A stretch of DNA of 64,000 nucleotides, from the sequence record OP172789; one strand, written 5' to 3'. Position 1 is the stretch's first letter, and each line of letters opens with the position of its first letter. The translations under genes were made by a program, and so were the position numbers. Positions 44,543-58,464 of this stretch are shown in pieces. Source of the stretch: Escherichia phage ECO71P1. The notes beneath the pieces are model-generated. The model made no database searches. It saw only the letters and a list, made by a program, of their open reading frames with translations, and had not been told where the DNA came from.

Positions 44543-45682
44543 TTAGATACCAGTCATACGGACGACTGCGAAAGGACGCTTAAGCAGAACGCCTGCTGTT
44601 GCGTTTGCGTAGTCTTCAACGTAGCTCTTAGCACGTTTCTCAACGCCCAGAGTCATGAACTTAGTCTGAACCAGCTGGCTGAATACGGAACCATCATCGC
44701 TTGAGCCATCAATTGAGGAATCGATGTGATCAGCGTACAGATATGCCACGTTCAGGAAAGTCGGGTCACTGCCAAGTGCGCCGTTGAGTTCCGGTGCAGA
44801 TTTGATCTTCATCTTCGGATAAGTCTGGGTGATCCAGTCACGTACAGAAATACCGAAGTCGGTGGTGTTTGACAGCCAATCAATAGAGTTGGTCGGCAGC
44901 GCCAGAGTCATATCAACCTTCTCTGGATCAATCTGGTCCTGAGAGTTGACACGGATTTGACGAACCATCAAACGGATGTCTGCAGTCACCTGTTGGAAGG
45001 TCGCAGTAGCCCAGCCGGAAGTGGTGTTTGAAGTCATTGCCGCTGGCAGGTTTGGATCATTCAGGAAGCCGAACGTGCGGTTGTTCCCGTTATACCAACC
45101 ATAGAAGCCGATTGCGTTACGCATGATTTCCAGAGATACAGCAGCCTGCTGGCGCTTGGTCTCTGCAGAGTTCAGACGCATCGCAGACGCGCGGCCTTCT
45201 TCCAGCATGCCGACTGCCATGCCCATTTCACCGCGAACGATGGAACGGCGTTCAAAGTTCACGTTCCAGCTTGCCAGAGGAATAGAGGTGAAATCACCAT
45301 ATTCAACTGCGGTGCCAGCTGGTTCAACGATGCCCTGAACGATTTCTGCATCTTCCCACTGACCAACGGTGTCAATACCAACCAGCTCGTCAATTTTACG
45401 GGCAGCGGTCATGATTTTGACGAAGCCAGGCAGCCACTGTTGCAGGAACTGCAGCGGGGTCGGGATTGATGGCGTGGTCTGCGGCGCAGTAAATGCGGCG
45501 TCACCTACGCGGAAAGCGCCTGCACGGTTTAAGTGCTCAATCTGATCACGCACAATCGCGGAATCAAACACAATACCGATACGCGCAAGCTGGGAAACAG
45601 CCGCGTCGGTCACGGATTGCATATCAAAAGGGCGCACCTTGCTCGCTGGGAGGCGAGAGTGTGTTTGGCTAATGCGAGTCAT
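44543..45682 (-). CDS. putative major capsid protein
   Basis: 379 aa; position after scaffold gene; downstream hairpin. Confidence 0.45.
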
Positions 45683-45696
45683 TATTCACCTGCCTA

Positions 45697-46314
45697 TTAA
45701 CGAGTCAATTGTACAATGGTATAAGTGGAAGACTGGACGCTTGGGCCGGAAAGGGCAATAGTCGTCGGGTCAATCACAATACCGCCTGGGATGGCAACCA
45801 TGCCAGTTGGCAATGAGCCAGTATAGGCGATAATTGCACCAATAGGCAAGTTGTTCGGGTTGTTACCGCTGGAAATGCCTTTAGGTACATAAGCAAGCAG
45901 GTCGCCATAGTTAAGCGTCTGCGGACTGGTGCTTGGGTTGAATACTTCAACTACGAGGCCCGTGCACATATCATAGAACTCGCCTTCGCTATATTGAGGC
46001 AGAACCATGCTGGCACCCAAAGGACCAGTAGAGTTGCCATACAGCGCGTAACGCTTGCTATTGCCGAGGATGCCGTAGTAGTTAGTGCCGCCCAGCTCAA
46101 CTTCAAAGTCCTGCGCGCCCAAAGTTTTGGTTTGACCAGTACCCATTAAGGATACGTCAGTCTTAAAACCGAACACACGGCTGATGGCGTTTACGTTTGC
46201 GCCTTCGTTAGCGTTGGCAATTCGGCCTGGCTTCCCACGCTGTGGGCCGTCGCGAACGATGTCGCCAGGAAAGCCAGTTGTATATTGACGGCCTACACTA
46301 GTTTGGAAAGTCAT
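45697..46314 (-). CDS. hypothetical head protein (decoration or accessory)
   Basis: Start trimmed to MTFQTSVG to abut scaffold gene. Confidence 0.35.
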   Translation of the reverse strand: MTFQTSVGRQYTTGFPGDIVRDGPQRGKPGRIANANEGANVNAISRVFGFKTDVSLMGTGQTKTLGAQDFEVELGGTNYYGILGNSKRYALYGNSTGPLGASMVLPQYSEGEFYDMCTGLVVEVFNPSTSPQTLNYGDLLAYVPKGISSGNNPNNLPIGAIIAYTGSLPTGMVAIPGGIVIDPTTIALSGPSVQSSTYTIVQLTR

Positions 46315-46316
46315 GT

Positions 46317-47735
46317 TTATTCCCCTTTCAACCAAGCTTCAAATGCTTCGTCAGTTGCTGCAGAATCCGCAGCGGCCTTTTGTTTTGCGACTACACGCTG
46401 TTTTTGACCGTGTTCAACGCCGCGCAGATAATTATCCACCACGTCAAACTCAGCACCATCAACGCACTTCAAGCCTAACTTTTTAGCGCCATATTTCGCT
46501 ACGGACTTGGAGTCCATAGTTGCATGATCAAAGGCACCAACAACTTTAGACAGGCGCTGGTAGAGGCTATTCTTACGAGCAGAATCAGCGTAGAAAGCAG
46601 CAACTGCTGAATCAGATGCCATTGAGTGTTCCCCTTTTGCTGGACCTGGCGACGCTTTCGCCGCTTTTGTCGGTTTGTCATCTTTTTCGACCGAAGCCCC
46701 CTTTACGTTGCTGTTTTGCAGGCCGCTAACCACATCTTCAGCTTTGTCGCAAGGTGATACATCTTCAGCCTTGACTTCAACTTCTTCGTCTTTGACTTCG
46801 GCTTCAACTTCTTCTTCATCACCTACCGCGCCACCTTTAAGTTTTGCAATAAGTGCTTCGATTTGGCTGATCAGTTGCGGAAGCTCGCCGCCAGCGTGAG
46901 ATTCAGTTTCAACTTCAAACTTCTCTTCACCTTCTGGAGTCTCTTCAGCTTCTGCTTTAACTTCTGGATCAACCATCACTTCTTCACGTTCTTCGGTTGA
47001 ATCCTTCTCTTCTGCTTTCACTTCAACTTCGTCCTGATGAGCAGCTTCGGTGCTCTCTTCATTCAGAAATTGTTCGAGCGCAGGGATCAGTGATTTCAGC
47101 TGTTCAACAGCATTATCACGCGCTTTACCTTTTAACGGTTTTGGCATGTCTAAATCCTCGTTGGATGGTGTTACAGTCGTCAAACAAAGATGGTCAAAGC
47201 AACGACCATCCAGCACCCGTGCACCTGGTACTCGACCAACGTCCACGAGAGCAATGTGGTTGCCGCGAAGAGTTGTCTGTACCACTTCATACGGCTGCCC
47301 GTCAAACTCTCCAGACTGTATGATGAATTCACAGTCATAGCCCAAAGACAAGTCAACCTTTCCAGAATCGATGGCCTTCTTCAGACGACGGCTAAAAACT
47401 TTAAGGTCGCCGCGCATCCATGGCTTGTCATAATAAACATTGCCAGTTAGAACGCCATCAACGCCATACTCTTCGGGTGCTGTGTTATCCTCATCACCTT
47501 CGAATCCAGAAAGCATTTCGTGATTGTCGATGAAAGGGATATTTTTGAATGAATCTATCGCTTCGGGGTCTTTCACCGCTGACTCTGGGCGATAAACTTT
47601 TACGATGCGATTCGGATCACCATCAAGTCCAACCTGACCTGCAGAATAATCAAAAATGCCAAATGACGAAATGGGACAACCCACAATCGTCAAGAATCCA
47701 TTTTTGTCAATTTCGCGTGCCGTTTGCATTCGCAT
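46317..47735 (-). CDS. prohead scaffold/protease-like protein with long acidic Glu-rich linker
   Basis: 472 aa, central EEVEAEVKDEEVEVKAED-type acidic region; GAGGGTGG RBS. Confidence 0.45.
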   Translation of the reverse strand: MRMQTAREIDKNGFLTIVGCPISSFGIFDYSAGQVGLDGDPNRIVKVYRPESAVKDPEAIDSFKNIPFIDNHEMLSGFEGDEDNTAPEEYGVDGVLTGNVYYDKPWMRGDLKVFSRRLKKAIDSGKVDLSLGYDCEFIIQSGEFDGQPYEVVQTTLRGNHIALVDVGRVPGARVLDGRCFDHLCLTTVTPSNEDLDMPKPLKGKARDNAVEQLKSLIPALEQFLNEESTEAAHQDEVEVKAEEKDSTEEREEVMVDPEVKAEAEETPEGEEKFEVETESHAGGELPQLISQIEALIAKLKGGAVGDEEEVEAEVKDEEVEVKAEDVSPCDKAEDVVSGLQNSNVKGASVEKDDKPTKAAKASPGPAKGEHSMASDSAVAAFYADSARKNSLYQRLSKVVGAFDHATMDSKSVAKYGAKKLGLKCVDGAEFDVVDNYLRGVEHGQKQRVVAKQKAAADSAATDEAFEAWLKGE

Positions 47736-47845
47736 CCACCCTCAAATAAGTATTGTGTATTATATCTAATGAAAAAAACTTAGGCAAACAATAATTATGG
47801 TTTGAATATGTATAACAACCGATATAGCCGCGCCTTAATTAGTGT

Positions 47846-48107
47846 GATACGGATGATACGGATAAAATGAGGCGTATTTTTATCCGTATCGGTGTATAAG
47901 CCGCGCTATCACTGGTGTGCTACGGATGATACGGATGATACGGATACTTTTCATATATAAGAGTTTATAAAAAAATAAAATTAAATTAGATATATAATTT
48001 TAAATTAATTTATTTGAATTCCTATAAAGTATCGCGGCAACGCGTATCATCCGTATCATCCGTAAGATTCTTTTGAAAACAACTACTTACTTGATACGGA
48101 TGATACG
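47846..48107. repeat. iteron cluster: direct and inverted copies of TACGGATGATACG flanking an AT-rich core
   Basis: 47846-47863, 47921-47947 (triple), inverted copy 48043-48064, 48093-48107; AT-rich 47948-48030. Confidence 0.7.
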
Positions 48108-48151
48108 TCATTATACGCGTAAAATCCTGCGGCAATCCATTGCCAGGCGAT

Positions 48152-48289
48152 TCAGTGAATATTAAAAAGCACTCCAGCAACTAAAACGCCAATCAGCATC
48201 GAGTCGTAAACAGCCCATTTCCAAGAAAGCAAAGAGTTGCAATTAATATTTCGCACTTTAACGTAACGTGACTGAATAATCTTTTGCAT
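48152..48289 (-). CDS. small hydrophobic protein (45 aa)
   Basis: Hand translation MQKIIQSRYVKVRNINCNSLLSWKWAVYDSMLIGVLVAGVLFNIH; AAAGAGGAAG RBS. Confidence 0.3.
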   Translation of the reverse strand: MQKIIQSRYVKVRNINCNSLLSWKWAVYDSMLIGVLVAGVLFNIH

Positions 48290-48299
48290 AACTTCCTCT

Positions 48300-49220
48300 T
48301 TAGTTCAACTTAATTGCGGTGATCTGTCCGTAAACGGTAGATGTCAATTCGTCTGTGCATTGATAGTTTAGATACACGTTGCCAGGCGCGGCAAGAGTAA
48401 TTATCTTTGTTGGAATATTGCCGCCGAAACGACCTGCAGCCCGAATGCCAGCAGACATCGTGAATGCATCATCCGTAATATCTGAATTACTTGTTGACAA
48501 TTTTACTGTAATTCCGGTATTCGCTTGAACTCCTTCTGTTGCGACAGTCAACTGACTTGCTGTCACAAGCCATTTCCCTGCAGGCAGGTTTAATGTTGCC
48601 AGATTCACCAGAGTTGTCGGAGGATTGCTTACACTATTGCTTGTGTTTTGCACATTGCTTGCAGCAGCATTAAGAACTCCAGAACCATCAATTGATAGTG
48701 TCGCTCCTACTTTTACGCCACCCAAGGTTGATGCTGATGCAATCGGTAACGAGTATTGAGTAACACTAATTGTACCGTCACCTGCAACACTTATGCCACT
48801 TCCTATCTTGACGCCGCCGAGAACAGAAGCCGTTGCCGCTGGTAACGTGTATTGGTTGCCGCTGGATTTGACTACCTTAACGGCGACAGCATTCTTGGAC
48901 CCTCCAGACTCCATGCCTATAATCACCGCTTCTCCAAAAGCGATGGTGATTGTAGATGCAGTTAAACCAGTCTGCACGTCTGTTATGTCCATTTTGGGAA
49001 CTGAAAGTGTCAGATTCGGCTTGCTGGTAGAATCGCCATCATTACCGATCATAAAGAATTGGCCGACTGAATTGTATCCAGATGCCAATGGCGGACTCAA
49101 TGGAACAATCAAATTTTTATCGGATGTAAATTCTGAAACAATCGCCAAACCGTTCGCATATACAGCAGGTAATACTGGCGTTTGTCCAGATATAGGAAAC
49201 GTGCTGATTGGTATCGTCAT
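48300..49220 (-). CDS. fibre-repeat protein in the head module (LPxAxASxLGGVKxG repeats)
   Basis: QYTLPAATASVLGGVKIG and QYSLPIASASTLGGVKVG tandem motifs; GAGG RBS before internal ATG. Confidence 0.4.
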   Translation of the reverse strand: MTIPISTFPISGQTPVLPAVYANGLAIVSEFTSDKNLIVPLSPPLASGYNSVGQFFMIGNDGDSTSKPNLTLSVPKMDITDVQTGLTASTITIAFGEAVIIGMESGGSKNAVAVKVVKSSGNQYTLPAATASVLGGVKIGSGISVAGDGTISVTQYSLPIASASTLGGVKVGATLSIDGSGVLNAAASNVQNTSNSVSNPPTTLVNLATLNLPAGKWLVTASQLTVATEGVQANTGITVKLSTSNSDITDDAFTMSAGIRAAGRFGGNIPTKIITLAAPGNVYLNYQCTDELTSTVYGQITAIKLN

Positions 49221-49227
49221 AATGACC

Positions 49228-50079
49228 TCAAATGATTGGTATTTTCCTGCACTTGCAGTGTATTGCCCATCCAGGAGGACCGATGTCACCCTTTTTGAAC
49301 TTCAATTCTCCGCCAACTTCCCATAGGCGCTTGTCATCAAGTTTAAATCTCATTCCGTCGACGTGTTCATGAGAGATTCGCGGCTCCTTTCCTGCTCCTG
49401 AGTGCGCCCATTCAAATTCTTCAACTCCATTCTGGCGCATCCTTTCATCGCTTAGAACGCAATACAATTTGCTTGTCTGGTCTTTAGCGATTAAGTCGAC
49501 TCTCTTTGCAGAGAAGTGTTTTACGTTTCGCAGCGCCGCCTGAATGCCTGACGTGCCTTGCTGGGCTGGGTCGGGCGAAGTCAGCGAAAGCATTACTGCT
49601 TCGTACACTCTGTTGTGAATATCCTCGCCGACCTTAGTCACTAGAGTCGTGTTAAACGTCTCGCTTGTTCTAAGAGTGTTCTCAACGAATTTGTTATATG
49701 TGGCCTTTGGCGCTTCTATGCCTGCGGACTTAAGGCTGGCGAATGTAGCAGAAGTAGCACCCTTTTCGACCGATTTGATAAAATCAGCGGCAATCTTTGA
49801 CCCAACACGAGCAAACGCCCTTGCCCATTTCAGCTGCAGACGTTTCATAAGAGTTTGGAATGTTGAATCAGCAGAGTCTTGCGCAAAGAACTTCTGCACC
49901 TGCTTCTTTTCAAGCCACTCTGAAATTCCTGCCTGATAGTCATCAATCATCGCATAGCAAAGACCTTTCATCTCACGACGGTAGGCCATTGCAATAGCGT
50001 TTGATGGGATTATCGGACTGCCGCGCCCGATTCTATCGGGTGAGCGGCGTTCACGTTTTTTCGAAGCTTTAAAAGCCAT
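49228..50079 (-). CDS. head morphogenesis protein (Mu F / SPP1 gp7-like)
   Basis: Position directly after portal; start trimmed to MAFKASKK. Confidence 0.45.
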   Translation of the reverse strand: MAFKASKKRERRSPDRIGRGSPIIPSNAIAMAYRREMKGLCYAMIDDYQAGISEWLEKKQVQKFFAQDSADSTFQTLMKRLQLKWARAFARVGSKIAADFIKSVEKGATSATFASLKSAGIEAPKATYNKFVENTLRTSETFNTTLVTKVGEDIHNRVYEAVMLSLTSPDPAQQGTSGIQAALRNVKHFSAKRVDLIAKDQTSKLYCVLSDERMRQNGVEEFEWAHSGAGKEPRISHEHVDGMRFKLDDKRLWEVGGELKFKKGDIGPPGWAIHCKCRKIPII

Positions 50080-50080
50080 A

Positions 50081-52456
50081 TCAACCTTGCTTCGGTGAAT
50101 TAGTAGGATTATTGAGTGCTCCGTATGCTTGAGAGCAATCACCCTTCAACCACTCCTTGAATGAGTTCACATCTAATTCGTGGATTGAGTCGAATCCATT
50201 CCAACCGTTACCAAATGATGCTTGATAAGCTTCTTTCGCTTCTTCTGCTGAATCGAATCCAAGCATACACTTGTGTTCATCAAACTCGCCAGAGTAGTTA
50301 TCGTTTTGGTTCACGATAAAGACTTTCGGCGACTTCAGATTTGGACCCACAAAGCAGTCTACTTCATCACCGTCTGCACCCTTGGTGCCCTTGATGAATC
50401 CGTAGTGGTGCGGCATCTTCACGGCCCATTCACCGTCAAGGCTGTTTCCTCTACGAATGCTGTTGCGCGGATTCTCAATGCCAAGAATCATTCCGTGCAA
50501 CTTCATCTTAGGTAATGATGCTGCGTCCATTTTACCAACGTTGTGGCGTAAGTTGACGACGTGTCCTTTAACGCTTGGAAGGGTAGACGGTTGCACCGAC
50601 CGTGAATCTTTTTGAGGGTCAAAATCCACATCCTGACCTTCTTTCAGGTAGTAATCCGCAATACCCTCCAGACCTTCTTTCAACTGCGTTAGGACATCAA
50701 CCTGATGGCTTGATTCATCATCGGTGTCGTCCATGTTGATTTCGACAGGTGCTCTGTCAGGGTTTTCTGCCAACTCACCACGCGCGGCACCCTCTGGCAT
50801 AATACCTGTTTCGCTATAGAACTGGCCGCCCATCTTGACAACATCAGCTTTCGCCTGTTCAATATCGGCCTTACCTTGCAGGACTTCACCAGCAGACTTG
50901 CCAAGCAATGCCATATTCTCTGGAGACATCCCTGGGGTTTCTTCTGCTGCGTCTTCCGGCAGACGGTTGTAGCCGCTGTTTTTGTCGTCTTTGATGCGGT
51001 CGCGCTCTTCATCAGGAGAAATGACGCCAGCATCAATAAGAGTTTTGCCAGTGTTGGCTCGCTTATCATTGATTTCTGCAAGTTGAGTAGCAGTAAGTGA
51101 GCCAACTGGTTCCCATGCAACCTTAACATCGACATCCACCCCTTCTGATTTGAGAAGGATTTTGTAATGGCGGTCGAGAATTTTTGTCAGGTCATGCTGC
51201 TGGCACGTTTCCAACTCTTCGTGATAGCTGACCATCTCGAATTCACCAGTAGCGTTAAAGCCTTTCGGCGAAGTCCCAAGTAGTTTGGTTGACGGAACTT
51301 TTGCGATTGCGGCCACCAGCTGGTACTGGTTCATGATGATGCTGTCGAAGTCTGACAAGTTGATGTCGAACTGGTCCATCTCTTCTTTTTGGCCAAGCAC
51401 TTTGACTGCATAGTTATCGCGGTACTTGATCCACATCATCAGACGTTCTGCAAAAGACCGCTCATTGGCAATCGCCTTGTCAACGTCGGTCCGCAGCGTG
51501 GTTGTACGCTTGGACATCGCCAGCAATGGCGCTTCGTTAGCGGTACGTTCAGCGGCATAGATGCGTTCATAAATCTGCTGAGTCAGAGGAATGCCGCCGT
51601 AAATATAAGTTGGCTTGAGAATATCAGCTGGCTCATCATTGCGCAAGATGATGAGGTGACTGCGATGATAACGTTGTCCGCTGATCACCCAGTATTCTGG
51701 ATCATAGAAGTGCTGTGATGCAGGGTCGGCGGTGTTTTCAGACGTTAAAAATGGCATCATCCAATAAGGGTCAACCTGAATGATTCCCTTATAAGACCCC
51801 TTTGTCACACCATCAATGTTAAAAGGCTTGCTGTAATATTCTGGATCATCGCTACGCACATCAAATATGATGACGCGGATACCAAAAATATTTTTGAATC
51901 GTTCGGCTTCAACTAAGTGCTCTTTGATATTAAATTCTTTATCAATTTGCTTTAGGCGTTCGCTTGCCTGCACTGACAATTCTGACTCAGAACTGGATTT
52001 GACTTCCCAACCTTTACGGACCGCATCGCGTCCTACCATGGAACACGCCTTGTTCACCAGCCAATGCTGTGCGATGATGGCACAAGCTTGATAGCCGATG
52101 AATGACTGTGACAAATACCAGTTTTGAAGTTGAATAGGTACTGTGTATGGGTTGACCTGCCCTTCTGAACTGATGTTCTTCAAGGCATTATCCATGACTT
52201 TTTTGGATACTGTTGCGGAATCGACTGAACGGCCTTTTATGATAGCAACACCGTCGCCATTAATATCAGGCTCATATAAAGGGAAGTCATCAACCGTTTT
52301 AAAGGTCGGTCGATTGCTTTCAGTCTTTTCCCAGCGTTGACCGCTGCCGCGCCTTTCAAGGCGTTCAAACGGTGCCAATGGGTCGCCTGGCGGCATCTCC
52401 GCTGGTTCGGCTTCTGGTTGCGTCTTCTCCCAGAGTTTTATGCCAAGAATTTTCAT
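50081..52456 (-). CDS. portal protein with C-terminal extension domain
   Basis: About 790 aa, between terminase and head morphogenesis genes; AGGTGG RBS before MKILGIK. Confidence 0.55.
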   Translation of the reverse strand: MKILGIKLWEKTQPEAEPAEMPPGDPLAPFERLERRGSGQRWEKTESNRPTFKTVDDFPLYEPDINGDGVAIIKGRSVDSATVSKKVMDNALKNISSEGQVNPYTVPIQLQNWYLSQSFIGYQACAIIAQHWLVNKACSMVGRDAVRKGWEVKSSSESELSVQASERLKQIDKEFNIKEHLVEAERFKNIFGIRVIIFDVRSDDPEYYSKPFNIDGVTKGSYKGIIQVDPYWMMPFLTSENTADPASQHFYDPEYWVISGQRYHRSHLIILRNDEPADILKPTYIYGGIPLTQQIYERIYAAERTANEAPLLAMSKRTTTLRTDVDKAIANERSFAERLMMWIKYRDNYAVKVLGQKEEMDQFDINLSDFDSIIMNQYQLVAAIAKVPSTKLLGTSPKGFNATGEFEMVSYHEELETCQQHDLTKILDRHYKILLKSEGVDVDVKVAWEPVGSLTATQLAEINDKRANTGKTLIDAGVISPDEERDRIKDDKNSGYNRLPEDAAEETPGMSPENMALLGKSAGEVLQGKADIEQAKADVVKMGGQFYSETGIMPEGAARGELAENPDRAPVEINMDDTDDESSHQVDVLTQLKEGLEGIADYYLKEGQDVDFDPQKDSRSVQPSTLPSVKGHVVNLRHNVGKMDAASLPKMKLHGMILGIENPRNSIRRGNSLDGEWAVKMPHHYGFIKGTKGADGDEVDCFVGPNLKSPKVFIVNQNDNYSGEFDEHKCMLGFDSAEEAKEAYQASFGNGWNGFDSIHELDVNSFKEWLKGDCSQAYGALNNPTNSPKQG

Positions 52457-52618
52457 TGTTAACGCCACCTGACAGTGAAAGGGAATCAATCTATATTATA
52501 AATATTCATGTGTTTGTAAGCAAATGATATGTATGGTGATCATAAATAGTTCATAAAATATTTTGCTTTTGTATCATTTTGAGTTATATTTTAGTTAACC
52601 AAACGAAAGGAGATTGAA

Positions 52619-53274: not shown

Positions 53275-54735
53275 TTAAAGGTTAGAGAAGAAGCCGGATG
53301 CTGCAACAATTGGTTTCATCAATGCCATGATTGCTGCGTCCGCTTTGTTAGGCGATTTGACTCCACGCTTTGCCATATCCTTTTTCGATTCAACTTTGAA
53401 CTTGCCAAGTACAGACGTGTCTTTGCGCGGCGCTGACATTTCAAAAAGAAACGTCTCAATTTCTTCCGCAGACCAAGCAGGAATCCCAAGTTCTGGGATG
53501 CCGTCTGTGTCGATGGAAATCAACTCATCAGTCGGGTATACGGCCTGCCCTGTTGCATACTCATATGTCTTCCTGAATCGTTCGGCAATCTCAGTCCATT
53601 TTTGCGCTTTTATGTTTGCGAAATGGTCTTTATTGAGTATTTCAACGTGTGGTAACTCAAGGAAAACGTCATCAGGATCATCAACAGCACCTTGCGCGTT
53701 GAACGCATTAAATTCGATTCTTGGGAATGTTGGATTTTCATGGATTGCATACTCATTGAGCTCATCAAATTTTGAACCAGCAAATGCACCAACACCGATT
53801 GCGTCATAGGTAATTGATGCGCCGAATGTCAATGCGTCTTTCCAAACTCCGCTTGCGGACTTAAGCAATTCATCTTCCAGACCTTCCCATGTCTTGATGC
53901 CGCGCAATACGTTGCCCGTGACAAATGCTGTGGCGTTTAAGTCGTCGCCGTCGTCCGCCACGTCAAAGCCTATACGGTTAGACCCTGACAAGCTCCATCC
54001 CAGCGTAGGGTGTTTGTGGAGGTTTAGCGCGGCCTTGACGAATGCACGGTTAATGACCGACTTGTCGCCGCCTGTCTTCGGTACTCCGCCATAAACGTGC
54101 TCTGCCTTTTTCGGGTCGCGCTCATACATGCCAGCAATAACGTCCAGCATTGTTTGCGACAAGAATGGGTTGTCTTGCCAGTTGATCTTCTTAACGATGG
54201 CATTCTTCGGCGGTCGCATGACAAAGTTCTGGTAAACGAAATCGGCCTCTTCATCAGGGTTAAATATGATCCATATTTCGGACCCTTCCTTACGAATTGT
54301 CGGCTCAATAATGTCCCACTGCTCTTCAGTCAGTGCGTGCGCTTCCTCAAGCCAAAGAACATCAACGCCTTCGGTTGATTTGATTTCGTCAACGTTGCGT
54401 GCGATACCGTAAAATAAGAATTCAGATTTTGTTCTTTTATGCTCAATGGAGTTTTTTAATAAGTTGAACTCGTCTTTAAAATCAGAAATCTCTATCTTAT
54501 CTTTTAATAGCGTATATACTGATTCAGAAATCTTGTTCTGGAATTGTCGAACGCAAAGGAATTTTAATTTAAAGTTTGCCGCCAAATAAATAGCAAAACC
54601 AGCGGCATCATGCGATTTGGAAGATGCACGACCGCCGTATATAACTTTGTATCGCGCTTTCGTCTTCCAGACTTCTCTTAAAGCAGGATTCAACTGGTAC
54701 ATGACTTTCCAATTATGTGTTAATATTTTATTCAT
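53275..54735 (-). CDS. terminase large subunit
   Basis: N-terminal Walker A VIYGGRASSKS; 486 aa with C-terminal nuclease-like acidic residues. Confidence 0.75.
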   Translation of the reverse strand: MNKILTHNWKVMYQLNPALREVWKTKARYKVIYGGRASSKSHDAAGFAIYLAANFKLKFLCVRQFQNKISESVYTLLKDKIEISDFKDEFNLLKNSIEHKRTKSEFLFYGIARNVDEIKSTEGVDVLWLEEAHALTEEQWDIIEPTIRKEGSEIWIIFNPDEEADFVYQNFVMRPPKNAIVKKINWQDNPFLSQTMLDVIAGMYERDPKKAEHVYGGVPKTGGDKSVINRAFVKAALNLHKHPTLGWSLSGSNRIGFDVADDGDDLNATAFVTGNVLRGIKTWEGLEDELLKSASGVWKDALTFGASITYDAIGVGAFAGSKFDELNEYAIHENPTFPRIEFNAFNAQGAVDDPDDVFLELPHVEILNKDHFANIKAQKWTEIAERFRKTYEYATGQAVYPTDELISIDTDGIPELGIPAWSAEEIETFLFEMSAPRKDTSVLGKFKVESKKDMAKRGVKSPNKADAAIMALMKPIVAASGFFSNL

Positions 54736-56148: not shown

Positions 56149-58464
56149 ATGCCAAGGCTAATATTCAAAAACAACTTTGAGGTCGCGCTGGCTCAACCAA
56201 CGACGACTTCAGACACCACAATCACAATTCGCTCAGGGTCGGGCTTTCCGACCTTGGGCGCAAACGAGCGTGTAGTGGCGACAATCGTCGATGCTGCAAC
56301 AGGCCTCCAATTCGAAATCGTCACAGTAACAGCCGTTGTTGGAAACGTCCTGACCGTGCAGCGTGCACAAGAAGGAACTGCAGCGCGTGCGTGGTCGGCT
56401 GGTGACATGCTTTCCATTCGAACTACTGCTGCGACACTGACAAATTCTTTTCGAAACTTCGGGGAAATTCCTAGCGGAATAAATCTTAATGCTTTGACTG
56501 GCACTTGGTTTGGCATATATTATCAAACTCAAGATTCAAACGCATCAACGACTCTAAATTACCCCATTGCAGTTGGTGGATCACTTGAGGTGTTTACAAG
56601 TGGTGCAGGGCAAGAAGGTTGCATCCAAGTTTATAAAGTAAGGAACTCGGCCAGGTCTTATACCAGGACTTACAATCCACAATCAGGATGGACTAGTTGG
56701 AATTCATACAGGATGACTGATGACACCGTGCCTATTCAATTTGGCGGAACGGGGCAAACCACAATTCAGGGAATGAAAACAGCTTTTGGATTCGGAACGG
56801 TTGCTGATCAGAACATCGTTCCAACTTCAATGGGCGGCACCGGATCAGGGGATAATGCTCAGGCTTGGCTAAACATCCGTCCACAAGGATCAACACCGCT
56901 GGCTGGTGACCCAGTAAACGATTATGATGCCGCGACTAAGCGTTGGGTTGAGAACTTGGTGAATACAGGCACCGTTGGTCCAAGTATGAACGGTGTTATG
57001 AACTATGGCGTCGGTGATTTCCACTTACGGGACAGCCGTGCTTATATTCAACCTTATGAAGTCGTTTCTGACGGACAATTGTTAAATCGTGCAGACTGGC
57101 CTGAGCTTTGGGCTTATGCGCAAATGCTTACCCCTATTGCTGATGCTGACTGGCTTGCCGATGCATCCAAGCGCGGCAAATATTCTTTGGGCAACGGAAC
57201 GACAACATTCCGCGTGCCAGACCGTAACGGCGTCCAAGCAGGGTCCATTCCTGGCCTATTTGGTCGAGGTGATGGTGGAGTGTCTTCTTTTGACGGTCGC
57301 GTAAGACAAAACGCAGCGCCAAACATAACCGGTTCAGTTGGCACTTCAATATCAACGCAATATAACACGGCAGGTAACACAGGGACAGGGGCAATAGTTC
57401 CAGCACCTGTTGTTATTCCAGGCCTAAGAGTTGGTCCAGAAGGAGGTACAACAAGCCTTAACTATAGGAACGGATTGAACATTGATGCAAGCCTTTCCAA
57501 TGCTGCTTATGGTCGAGATGGCTCCGCAGAGGTTCGACCTAATGCTTTTGAAGGCGTTTGGGTGATTCGTGCATCTGGTGGATTTGTCGCGGCGAATACG
57601 CAGTGGAGTGTAATTACTGGTGACTCATCCCGTCCATCAACAGGGGTGACAACGGATGGCGGTGAAATAATTTCAAGATACAATATTGGAACGGCACAGG
57701 AAGCCCAAATGAGCTGGCGCGTTCGCGCTTTAATTGGAGGTACATATTATGCTCGCCTTAATGTGTCAAACGCCACAAAAGGCACAACTACTGTATTTGA
57801 TTTTGATGATACTGGTGCAATGGCTGCTCCTGGCCCAATTTCTGCTGGTGCTGCTGGTTCAAATTTCAAAAGCACAATAGAAGTAAATAATGTCTCTTAT
57901 CCAGGACTTTTGTTCAAGCCTACGTACACCAATGGAAACGTGATACCTGATACTGTTGTTGGAGGGAATACATTCTTTGAGTGCTCATTCATCCAGGGGC
58001 AGATATCAGGTGTTCAATTGTATCGTAGGAGGAAAGACGGAAATGCCACAGGACAAATAGCGATTTCCTTCCCGACTACTGCCGGAACGATTGCGCTTCA
58101 AGGTACATCAGGCATTGAATATAAAAAGGACGTTGTAGATGCAGATGCCAAGGAAGCGATGGATAGAATCAATTCACAGCGCCTTGTCAATTTCGTTTAT
58201 AAGGATGATGAGCAAGAGCGTGTGAGATTTGGTATAATCGCTGAAGAAGCGGAATTGATTGCGCCACAATATATCAAGCACAATCAAGAAAACATTTCTG
58301 ACATTCTTGATGAAGAAGGAAACAAGATAGGTGAAGAGACTCGTGACAGACCTTCAGTTGACACAAACCCAATCGTCATGGACTTGATGGGCTGTGTGCA
58401 GTATCTCAATAAGCAAATTGAAGATTTGAAGGCAGAGATAGCCGCGCTAAAGGCAGCAAAATAA
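56149..58464 (+). CDS. tail fibre/spike protein with C-terminal intramolecular chaperone (S74-like) domain
   Basis: C-terminal GTSGIEYKKDVVDADAKEAMDRINS...IEDLKAEIAALKAAK typical of auto-cleaving chaperone. Confidence 0.6.
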   Translation: MPRLIFKNNFEVALAQPTTTSDTTITIRSGSGFPTLGANERVVATIVDAATGLQFEIVTVTAVVGNVLTVQRAQEGTAARAWSAGDMLSIRTTAATLTNSFRNFGEIPSGINLNALTGTWFGIYYQTQDSNASTTLNYPIAVGGSLEVFTSGAGQEGCIQVYKVRNSARSYTRTYNPQSGWTSWNSYRMTDDTVPIQFGGTGQTTIQGMKTAFGFGTVADQNIVPTSMGGTGSGDNAQAWLNIRPQGSTPLAGDPVNDYDAATKRWVENLVNTGTVGPSMNGVMNYGVGDFHLRDSRAYIQPYEVVSDGQLLNRADWPELWAYAQMLTPIADADWLADASKRGKYSLGNGTTTFRVPDRNGVQAGSIPGLFGRGDGGVSSFDGRVRQNAAPNITGSVGTSISTQYNTAGNTGTGAIVPAPVVIPGLRVGPEGGTTSLNYRNGLNIDASLSNAAYGRDGSAEVRPNAFEGVWVIRASGGFVAANTQWSVITGDSSRPSTGVTTDGGEIISRYNIGTAQEAQMSWRVRALIGGTYYARLNVSNATKGTTTVFDFDDTGAMAAPGPISAGAAGSNFKSTIEVNNVSYPGLLFKPTYTNGNVIPDTVVGGNTFFECSFIQGQISGVQLYRRRKDGNATGQIAISFPTTAGTIALQGTSGIEYKKDVVDADAKEAMDRINSQRLVNFVYKDDEQERVRFGIIAEEAELIAPQYIKHNQENISDILDEEGNKIGEETRDRPSVDTNPIVMDLMGCVQYLNKQIEDLKAEIAALKAAK

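Follow-up and report, generated by a model that had tools for sequence, protein, structure and literature searches.

The protein encoded at positions 48300..49220 of a 64,000-nucleotide stretch of Escherichia phage ECO71P1 (record OP172789; this whole stretch is the window below) is probably a short surface fiber or spike of the virion, with an N-terminal anchor, a shaft of two repeats, and a C-terminal knob. Attachment to the head, that is, to the capsid shell, is its best-supported location, with a probability of about one half. The gene is on the minus strand, begins with ATG, ends with a stop codon at 48300-48302, and encodes 306 amino acids (30.86 kDa). It is encoded within the head-gene module, not with the tail and baseplate genes. 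A sequence-only reading of the window had placed tandem fiber-type repeats here; its coordinates are exactly those of the ATG-initiated coding sequence, and both of the peptides that it quoted are present in the translation. Over 2.5 kb around the gene, the DNA matches Escherichia phage vB_EcoM-Ro157lw at 99.2% identity and 27 other records at 90-99%. All of these are myophages of E. coli or Shigella in the genus Wifcevirus, with genomes of about 67-72 kb, and ECO71P1 is itself a Wifcevirus.

Three modules of the fiber protein

The two repeats are adjacent: fiber repeat 1, QYTLPAATASVLGGVKIGSGISVAGDGTISVT, covers residues 123-154 (48759..48854, minus strand), and fiber repeat 2, QYSLPIASASTLGGVKVGATLSIDGSGVLNAA, covers residues 155-186 (48663..48758, minus strand). 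They are identical at 16 of 32 residues and at 54 of 96 nucleotides. The best 32-residue self-match anywhere in the protein has 17 identities, versus a maximum of 11 (mean, 9.4) in 30 shuffles. More distant full-length homologues keep the N- and C-terminal domains and carry two (P0004), three (P0003), or about four (P0002) copies of the unit. Because copy number differs among homologues, this is a true repeat module. Its core is 23 residues long (YSLPAATxxxLGGVK.G). We modeled the protein as a monomer with AlphaFold2 (AF2), from an alignment of 14 sequences; the mean confidence (predicted local distance difference test, pLDDT) was 74.2. The model has no helix of four or more residues, and the repeat region is made up of short beta strands (pLDDT 55-69). 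The sequence-only reading had likened the repeats to beta-helical fiber repeats, which a model of this confidence does not confirm.

These repeats are the link to gp8.5, the head fiber of Bacillus phage phi29. The Pfam family Phage_head_fibr (PF11133) matches with 33.1 bits (cut-off, 24.6), but only over positions 213-252 of the 277 in the profile, which correspond to repeat 1. Searching PDB sequences with phmmer identified gp8.5 (6QVK and 3QC7; E~6e-4), and when our family alignment was compared with full-length gp8.5 using hhalign, only 23 residues aligned, at gp8.5 positions 230-252 (E=1e-5). Both proteins (for gp8.5, PDB 3QC7, 6QVK, and 6QYY) have an N-terminal all-beta base of about 110-120 amino acids followed by a fibrous part, both contain the motif Y[TS]LP.A[ST]...LGGVK.G, and both are encoded in a head module. 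gp8.5 is a dispensable trimeric decoration of the adhesin type (PMC7602432). Its base (residues 1-110), a pseudo-hexagonal beta-tulip, sits on the immunoglobulin-like domain of the major capsid protein (MCP) and is followed by a helix-turn-helix supercoil (PMC6542822, PMC7602432). By sequence comparison and in the AF2 model, neither the capsid-binding beta-tulip base nor the helical shaft has a counterpart in the ECO71P1 protein. Also, the motif occurs once in gp8.5 but twice here, and gp8.5 has no C-terminal jelly-roll knob. Beyond the one shared motif, the ECO71P1 protein is not a member of the gp8.5 family.

The motif itself is widespread. It is present in more than 1000 metagenomic proteins, in annotated tail fibers (from phiRSL1 and a Synechococcus phage), and in PHROGs that are labeled either 'head fiber' or 'tail fiber'. 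We sampled three contexts of relatives that share only the repeats: two of them (L010 and L011) end tail-like runs of genes, and the other (L012) lies between the MCP gene and an adaptor gene on a podovirus-like contig. Because it occurs in both head- and tail-labeled proteins and in mixed contexts, the motif is a generic building block of fibers that alone indicates neither head nor tail.

The C-terminal domain (residues 187-306; 48303..48662, minus strand) is modeled as a beta sandwich of about eight strands, presumably the distal TNF/C1q-like knob. Its pLDDT ranges from 42 to 88 across blocks of 10 residues. Among the 131 proteins that we compared with it, it was found only in P0001-P0004. 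Foldseek matched the model to the BC2L-C lectin (E=3e-4, for a query domain that the output does not specify), and the matches in BFVD are co-linear with C1q-domain, BclB-C-terminal, and collagen-like fiber proteins. The fold is thus predicted to resemble the knobs of TNF/C1q-type fibers. Fibers with such knobs, including the PRD1 spike P5, Bacillus BclA/ExsFA, and the lectins BC2L-C-Nt and PLTL, are just 9-18% identical to the protein, at moderate model confidence, and its shaft, unlike theirs, resembles neither collagen nor a coiled coil. The model also aligns over 148-165 residues with the stem-CBD of gp33, the short tail fiber of cyanophage A-1(L) (PDB 8KE9), and with the tail fiber of cyanophage A4 (PDB 9K09). 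As these alignments are longer than one domain, they probably span the modeled shaft as well as the knob. In addition, sequence profiles of the tail-fiber modules PHROG 11393, 10588, and 27381 match the repeats and the C-terminal domain. The cyanophage-type tail fibers differ from the ECO71P1 protein at the other end: they have other N-terminal domains, attach to the tail or baseplate, and are encoded with tail genes, whereas the N-terminal domain described here is restricted to head modules.

That N-terminal domain (residues 1-120; 48861..49220, minus strand) is all beta, with about 10 strands, and its pLDDT is above 90 over most of residues 1-100. It represents an undescribed family, presumably the virion anchor, and had no match in Pfam, in PHROG, or among PDB sequences. 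Its conserved motifs are Y-x-N, N-x-x-D, [KQ]-P-x-[LI]-T, and G-E-T. A profile search of 1.84 billion representative proteins returned only 14 matches. We take three of these to be spurious, as they are long repetitive proteins that matched in several short stretches. In the others, the domain is at the N terminus, the distal regions are unrelated, and total length varies from 182 to 647 amino acids; no Pfam domains were found in these relatives.

We could recover the genomic context of the domain in seven cases, and all seven are in PB1-like phages, within the head or packaging module. In the window and in L003, L004, L008, and L020, the gene is directly after the gene for the Mu-F-like head-morphogenesis protein (MuF). 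L003 and L004 are contigs of about 72 kb that resemble Wifcevirus, and in both the gene lies after MuF and before the protease gene; L008 is a viral contig of 68.9 kb, in which P0124 (599 amino acids) follows MuF; and in L020 the order is portal, MuF, and then P0128 (427 amino acids). P0124 and P0128 have no relative among isolated phages. In L009, P0127 (405 amino acids) is directly upstream of the protease-cement-MCP genes, and in L007, P0106 (182 amino acids; the N-terminal domain and two repeats) is directly upstream of TerL. IMG/VR yielded no loci for P0126, P0121, or P0130. There is one copy of the domain per locus, and a hidden Markov model (HMM) of the domain identified no second copy in the window. 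Using hhalign, we found no relation between the domain and three large tail-fiber-like proteins of the same phage (probabilities of about 0.1%). At the level of the fold, structure comparison is compatible with a likeness of this region to the N-terminal regions of tailspikes.

Some relatives of the domain have other features. In L009, from an uncultured PB1-like phage, the fiber gene is flanked by a 640-amino-acid open reading frame (ORF) with YadA-head repeats (L009:28-1950; PF05658, E=4e-16) and by a 402-amino-acid ORF of no known family (L009:3193-4401); the three form a cluster of adhesin-like genes inside a head module, directly upstream of the protease-cement-MCP genes. P0121, P0123, and P0124 (L008:9974-11800) have a hydrophobic extension of 15-30 residues before the domain that resembles a signal peptide, such as MKRLYLFFILIAFSVFFSPIHGNVFAQ; these extensions could be mis-called starts or true leader peptides. 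The central region of the longer relatives (YLRLGGGEW, SYRxIGFGY) recurs in about 25 other metagenomic loci (L016-L041), among which the HMM of the N-terminal domain matched L020 only. From these sequences, distal fiber modules appear to be shuffled between the N-terminal anchor and other proteins. We tentatively suggest that the domain is a new docking module, for capsid or neck, of PB1-like myophages, and that the slot after MuF is a site of adhesin exchange.

Detection in virions, labels, and conservation

Proteomic data for close relatives were already available. Necel et al. used liquid chromatography and tandem mass spectrometry to analyze CsCl-purified particles of vB_Eco4M-7 and ECML-117 (PMC7048862). 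In vB_Eco4M-7, the 'unknown protein' vB_Eco4M-7_38 (30.9 kDa) was identified by 8 peptides, with 72.9% coverage and the third-highest score; in ECML-117, gp36 (30.8 kDa) was identified by 3 peptides (PMC7048862). We verified that these proteins (vBEco4M7_38 and PI34_gp36) are orthologues of the ECO71P1 protein, and our computed mass of 30.86 kDa agrees with the reported masses. The sequence-only reading had named virion proteomics as a check and absence from virions as evidence against its interpretation; orthologues are in fact present in purified particles of two Wifceviruses (PMC7048862). A few of the proteins in these preparations were non-structural, including a helicase and a member of the glyoxalase family (PMC7048862). 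We considered estimating copy number from the published scores and rejected this, as the MCP and the sheath score under low-copy proteins.

Existing labels are inconsistent. In GenBank, the protein is variously hypothetical, 'head fiber protein' (WFH gp023 and the CWP003 orthologue), 'tail fiber protein' (Bas98-101), tail protein (F13), or tail connector (AV128 and EC150). The idea of a head fiber therefore already exists as a database annotation. What we add is the dissection into three modules, an undescribed anchor that is restricted to head modules and whose distal parts vary, and a connection to the published proteomics. In the paper on the BASEL expansion, the structural genes of Wifceviruses were annotated via the cryo-EM structure of E217, and just two sets of tail fibers were described, Gp32 and the T-shaped Gp114 of Bas99 (PMC11990801). 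The protein studied here corresponds to Bas99_0006, which belongs to neither set and is absent from the text of that paper. In the window, a 771-amino-acid ORF at 56149-58464 (plus strand) is found upstream of TerL, in divergent orientation, and is not part of the tail module. Matched by size and position, it is probably the T-shaped tail fiber with two receptor-binding domains (82.7 kDa; vB_Eco4M-7_27, Gp114 of Bas99). Descriptions of Wifceviruses by transmission electron microscopy do not mention head or neck fibers, which is uninformative, as in negative stain a spike of about 10 nm would be easy to miss.

Across 28 Wifcevirus records, whose hosts include O157, extended-spectrum beta-lactamase E. 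coli, Shigella, and K-12, identity of the protein is 93-98.5%. Among four close orthologues from Wifcevirus, the substitutions are distributed across the three modules. The receptor-binding domains of the T-shaped tail fiber, in contrast, 'vary a lot' (PMC11990801), and the host-linked distal variability that is typical of tail receptor-binding proteins is not seen in this protein. Further away, it diverges more than its neighbors do: it is 56% identical to its counterpart in L004, versus 70-91% for the neighboring genes. As far as sequence comparison goes, this faster divergence fits an exposed accessory protein.

Pbunavirus (PB1, E217, and JG024) and Myosmarvirus (MTx) have the same gene order: TerL, portal-InPase, MuF, a slot, a small transmembrane ORF, a long intergenic region, DUF2213 protease, cement protein, and MCP. 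Unlike Wifcevirus, they do not have a fiber gene in the slot after MuF. The whole head module is common to Pbunavirus JG024 and Serratia phage MTx, at 40-68% identity, without the fiber gene, and their slots contain an unrelated ORF of 68-69 amino acids. We considered whether the 68-amino-acid ORF of Pbunavirus might be a degenerate homologue of the fiber, and rejected this because the two were unrelated on comparison. Since JG024 and MTx share the head module without the fiber gene, the fiber is an accessory addition in the Wifcevirus-like branch and in some uncultured relatives.

Proposed location of the fiber on the particle

We propose that the 120-residue N-terminal beta domain would anchor the protein to the particle, that the two beta-rich 32-residue repeats would form a short shaft, and that the C-terminal TNF/C1q-like jelly roll would act as a ligand-binding, lectin-type head, probably for a glycan. 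The fiber would probably assemble as a homotrimer. Of the possible docking sites, the capsid shell is the most likely, and there the protein would be a head fiber. It may serve as an accessory adhesin, keeping the particle reversibly bound to a conserved glycan of the cell surface or the environment. It would not be the receptor-binding protein that determines host range, because it is 93-98.5% identical across different hosts, unlike the T-shaped fiber. We favor the capsid because the anchor domain is strictly associated with head modules and is absent from the phage's tail fibers, and because the tail is accounted for with two fibers and there is precedent for head-fiber adhesins that are dispensable.

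The sequence-only reading had suggested a head fiber or capsid-attached adhesin rather than a tail component. This is partly supported: the protein is fiber-like, encoded in the head module, and found in virions, its PF11133 match is above the cut-off, and its N-terminal domain is confined to the head or packaging modules of PB1-like phages. Less firm is the likeness to the phi29 head fiber, which amounts to a single 23-residue motif that also occurs in many proteins annotated or placed as tail fibers.

Several observations weigh against placing the fiber on the head. Neither the literature that we searched nor our own analysis localizes the protein on the particle. Proteins that are annotated or placed as tail fibers (phiRSL1, cyanophages, L010, and L011) contain the repeat motif just as often. 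Gene position is a weak guide, as the gene for the T-shaped tail fiber is also outside the tail module, near TerL, and the conserved synteny may, as far as sequence can tell, reflect common descent of the PB1-like phages. When we searched for a docking site, neither the MCP nor the cement protein had an insertion or deletion that co-segregated with the presence of the gene. The mass spectrometry scores give no measure of stoichiometry, as they do not follow copy number. Finally, the AF2 model is of a monomer and has only moderate confidence in the repeats and in the C-terminal domain.

With these points in mind, we considered other explanations. That the protein is not a virion fiber at all is very improbable; in that case, its repeats would be low-complexity sequence that arose by chance in a non-structural gene, or the protein would be an assembly factor that leaves the particle. 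Detection by mass spectrometry alone does not prove structural status, as non-structural proteins were also in the preparations, but the protein had 72.9% coverage and the third-highest score in vB_Eco4M-7 and was detected independently in ECML-117. Furthermore, the repeats have high statistical significance and are homologous to those of known fiber proteins, and the anchor-shaft-knob architecture is conserved across homologues. It is also unlikely, though far less so, that the protein is a third short fiber of the tail or baseplate, or an adaptor on a known tail fiber, whose gene is in the head module by chance. The N-terminal domain would then dock to the baseplate or to a fiber protein, with the knob binding to a secondary receptor that is conserved, such as the lipopolysaccharide core. 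The labels of tail fiber (Bas98-101), tail protein (F13), and tail connector (AV128 and EC150), which come from PHROG-based pipelines, point this way, as do the matches of the repeats and the C-terminal domain to the tail-fiber families phrog_10588, phrog_27381, and phrog_11393. Another tail fiber of the genus is encoded outside the tail module, and the YLRLGGGEW/SYRxIGFGY distal modules recur in many phage proteins that lack the N-terminal domain. However, none of the seven recovered contexts of the N-terminal domain is in a tail module, and the domain has no sequence or profile similarity to the tail-fiber proteins of the same phage. Moreover, the annotation guided by E217 counts two sets of fibers, the related baseplate of Pbunavirus works without this protein, and the protein lacks the sequence variability that is typical of tail receptor-binding proteins.

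A fiber of the neck or collar (a whisker) near the portal vertex, positioned like T4 fibritin or the gp82 neck fibers of A-1(L), seems less likely than a tail fiber. The gene is transcribed together with portal and MuF and comes immediately after them, and in L007 it adjoins TerL. There is also a precedent for an anchor of about this size on the neck of a myophage: in the gp82 neck fibers of A-1(L), a trimeric N-terminal domain of 125 residues hooks onto a neck protein (PMC10966104). Also in favor of the neck, the three-fold sites of the capsid are already taken in this phage group by the E217 gp24-type cement protein, which we recognize in the window by its family match and which occupies those sites in the E217 structure. 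On the other side, the N-terminal domain has no sequence match to any solved protein, including the anchors of neck fibers; the neck genes (similar to E217 gp27/28/29) are shared with Pbunavirus, which lacks the fiber; and we saw no positive sign of a neck location.

Gene neighborhood, intergenic region, and implications

Translation of the fiber gene probably starts at the ATG. Reading the sequence, we found a Shine-Dalgarno motif, GAGG, at 49226..49229 (minus strand), 5 nucleotides upstream of the ATG at 49220, which overlaps the TGA stop codon of MuF (49228-49230); in Mansfield, a ribosome-binding site is annotated at the equivalent position. Identical boundaries of the gene are annotated in Mansfield, vB_Eco4M-7, ECML-117, WFH, and Bas99. 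A longer form with a GTG start (48300-49289, 329 amino acids), which would overlap MuF by 62 nucleotides, is probably not used.

On the minus strand, the order of genes, as assigned with Pfam and PHROG, is TerL (53275-54735); portal (50081-52489); MuF (49228..50082), which matches PF04233 and phrog_324 and is translationally adjacent to the fiber gene; the fiber gene; a 45-amino-acid ORF (48152..48289) with a predicted transmembrane segment; a repeat-rich intergenic region of 415 nucleotides (47736-48150); the DUF2213 head-maturation protease/scaffold gene (46317-47735); the gene for the E217-gp24-type cement protein (45697-46335); and the MCP gene (44543-45682). The fiber gene is the second-to-last gene of the portal-MuF transcription unit, and the 45-amino-acid ORF is the last. 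The sequence-only reading had put the gene between head morphogenesis and scaffold genes. MuF is indeed the upstream neighbor, but the 'scaffold' is the DUF2213 protease/scaffold gene, which is separated from the fiber gene by the small ORF and the intergenic region. The small ORF is annotated in Mansfield, vB_Eco4M-7 ('transmembrane domain found with Phobius'), ECML-117, WFH, and Bas99. ORFs of similar size are in the same position in JG024 (46 amino acids) and MTx (49 amino acids), though both lack the fiber gene. Residues 660-782 of the portal protein form a fused C-terminal InPase domain (PF18823, E=3e-46), and L003, L004, L007, and L008 also have this fusion.

In the intergenic region (47736-48150), iterons of 9 bp, GATACGGAT (as TGATACGGATGATACG), are arrayed in both orientations on either side of a very AT-rich core. 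The window contains seven matches to the iteron, and six of them are in this region, where 0 would be expected by chance. The same layout, with inverted arms about 100-210 nucleotides apart around an AT-rich center, is found at L003:9410-9690, L004:9340-9615, L005:6257-6546, and L006:6274-6535. The sequences of the arms differ among relatives: L003 has GCGGATAAGCGGATA, JG024 has arms of 49 nucleotides, and MTx has arms of 26 nucleotides. The sequence suggests that the array contains sites for a phage-specific DNA-binding protein, which might be a regulator of the protease-MCP operon or act at an origin. A sigma-70-like promoter, TTGCCT-17-TATAAT, precedes the protease gene (47787-47759, minus strand), and there is a terminator-like hairpin at 48190-48168, within the 3' part of the 45-amino-acid ORF.

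Wifceviruses are used against E. coli O157, and they are relatives of the Pseudomonas Pbunaviruses that are used in therapy. An abundant surface protein with inconsistent labels affects how their host recognition is modeled and engineered. If the protein is a third tail fiber, then the two-fiber model of Wifcevirus adsorption is incomplete. If it is a head fiber, as we favor, then it would provide a second type of capsid anchor, beside the single base that is known structurally (that of phi29 gp8.5), and it would point to a conserved slot for the exchange of adhesins in the head modules of PB1-like phages. Should the exchange-slot reading be true, these phages would have a swappable adhesion device on the head alongside their tail fibers.

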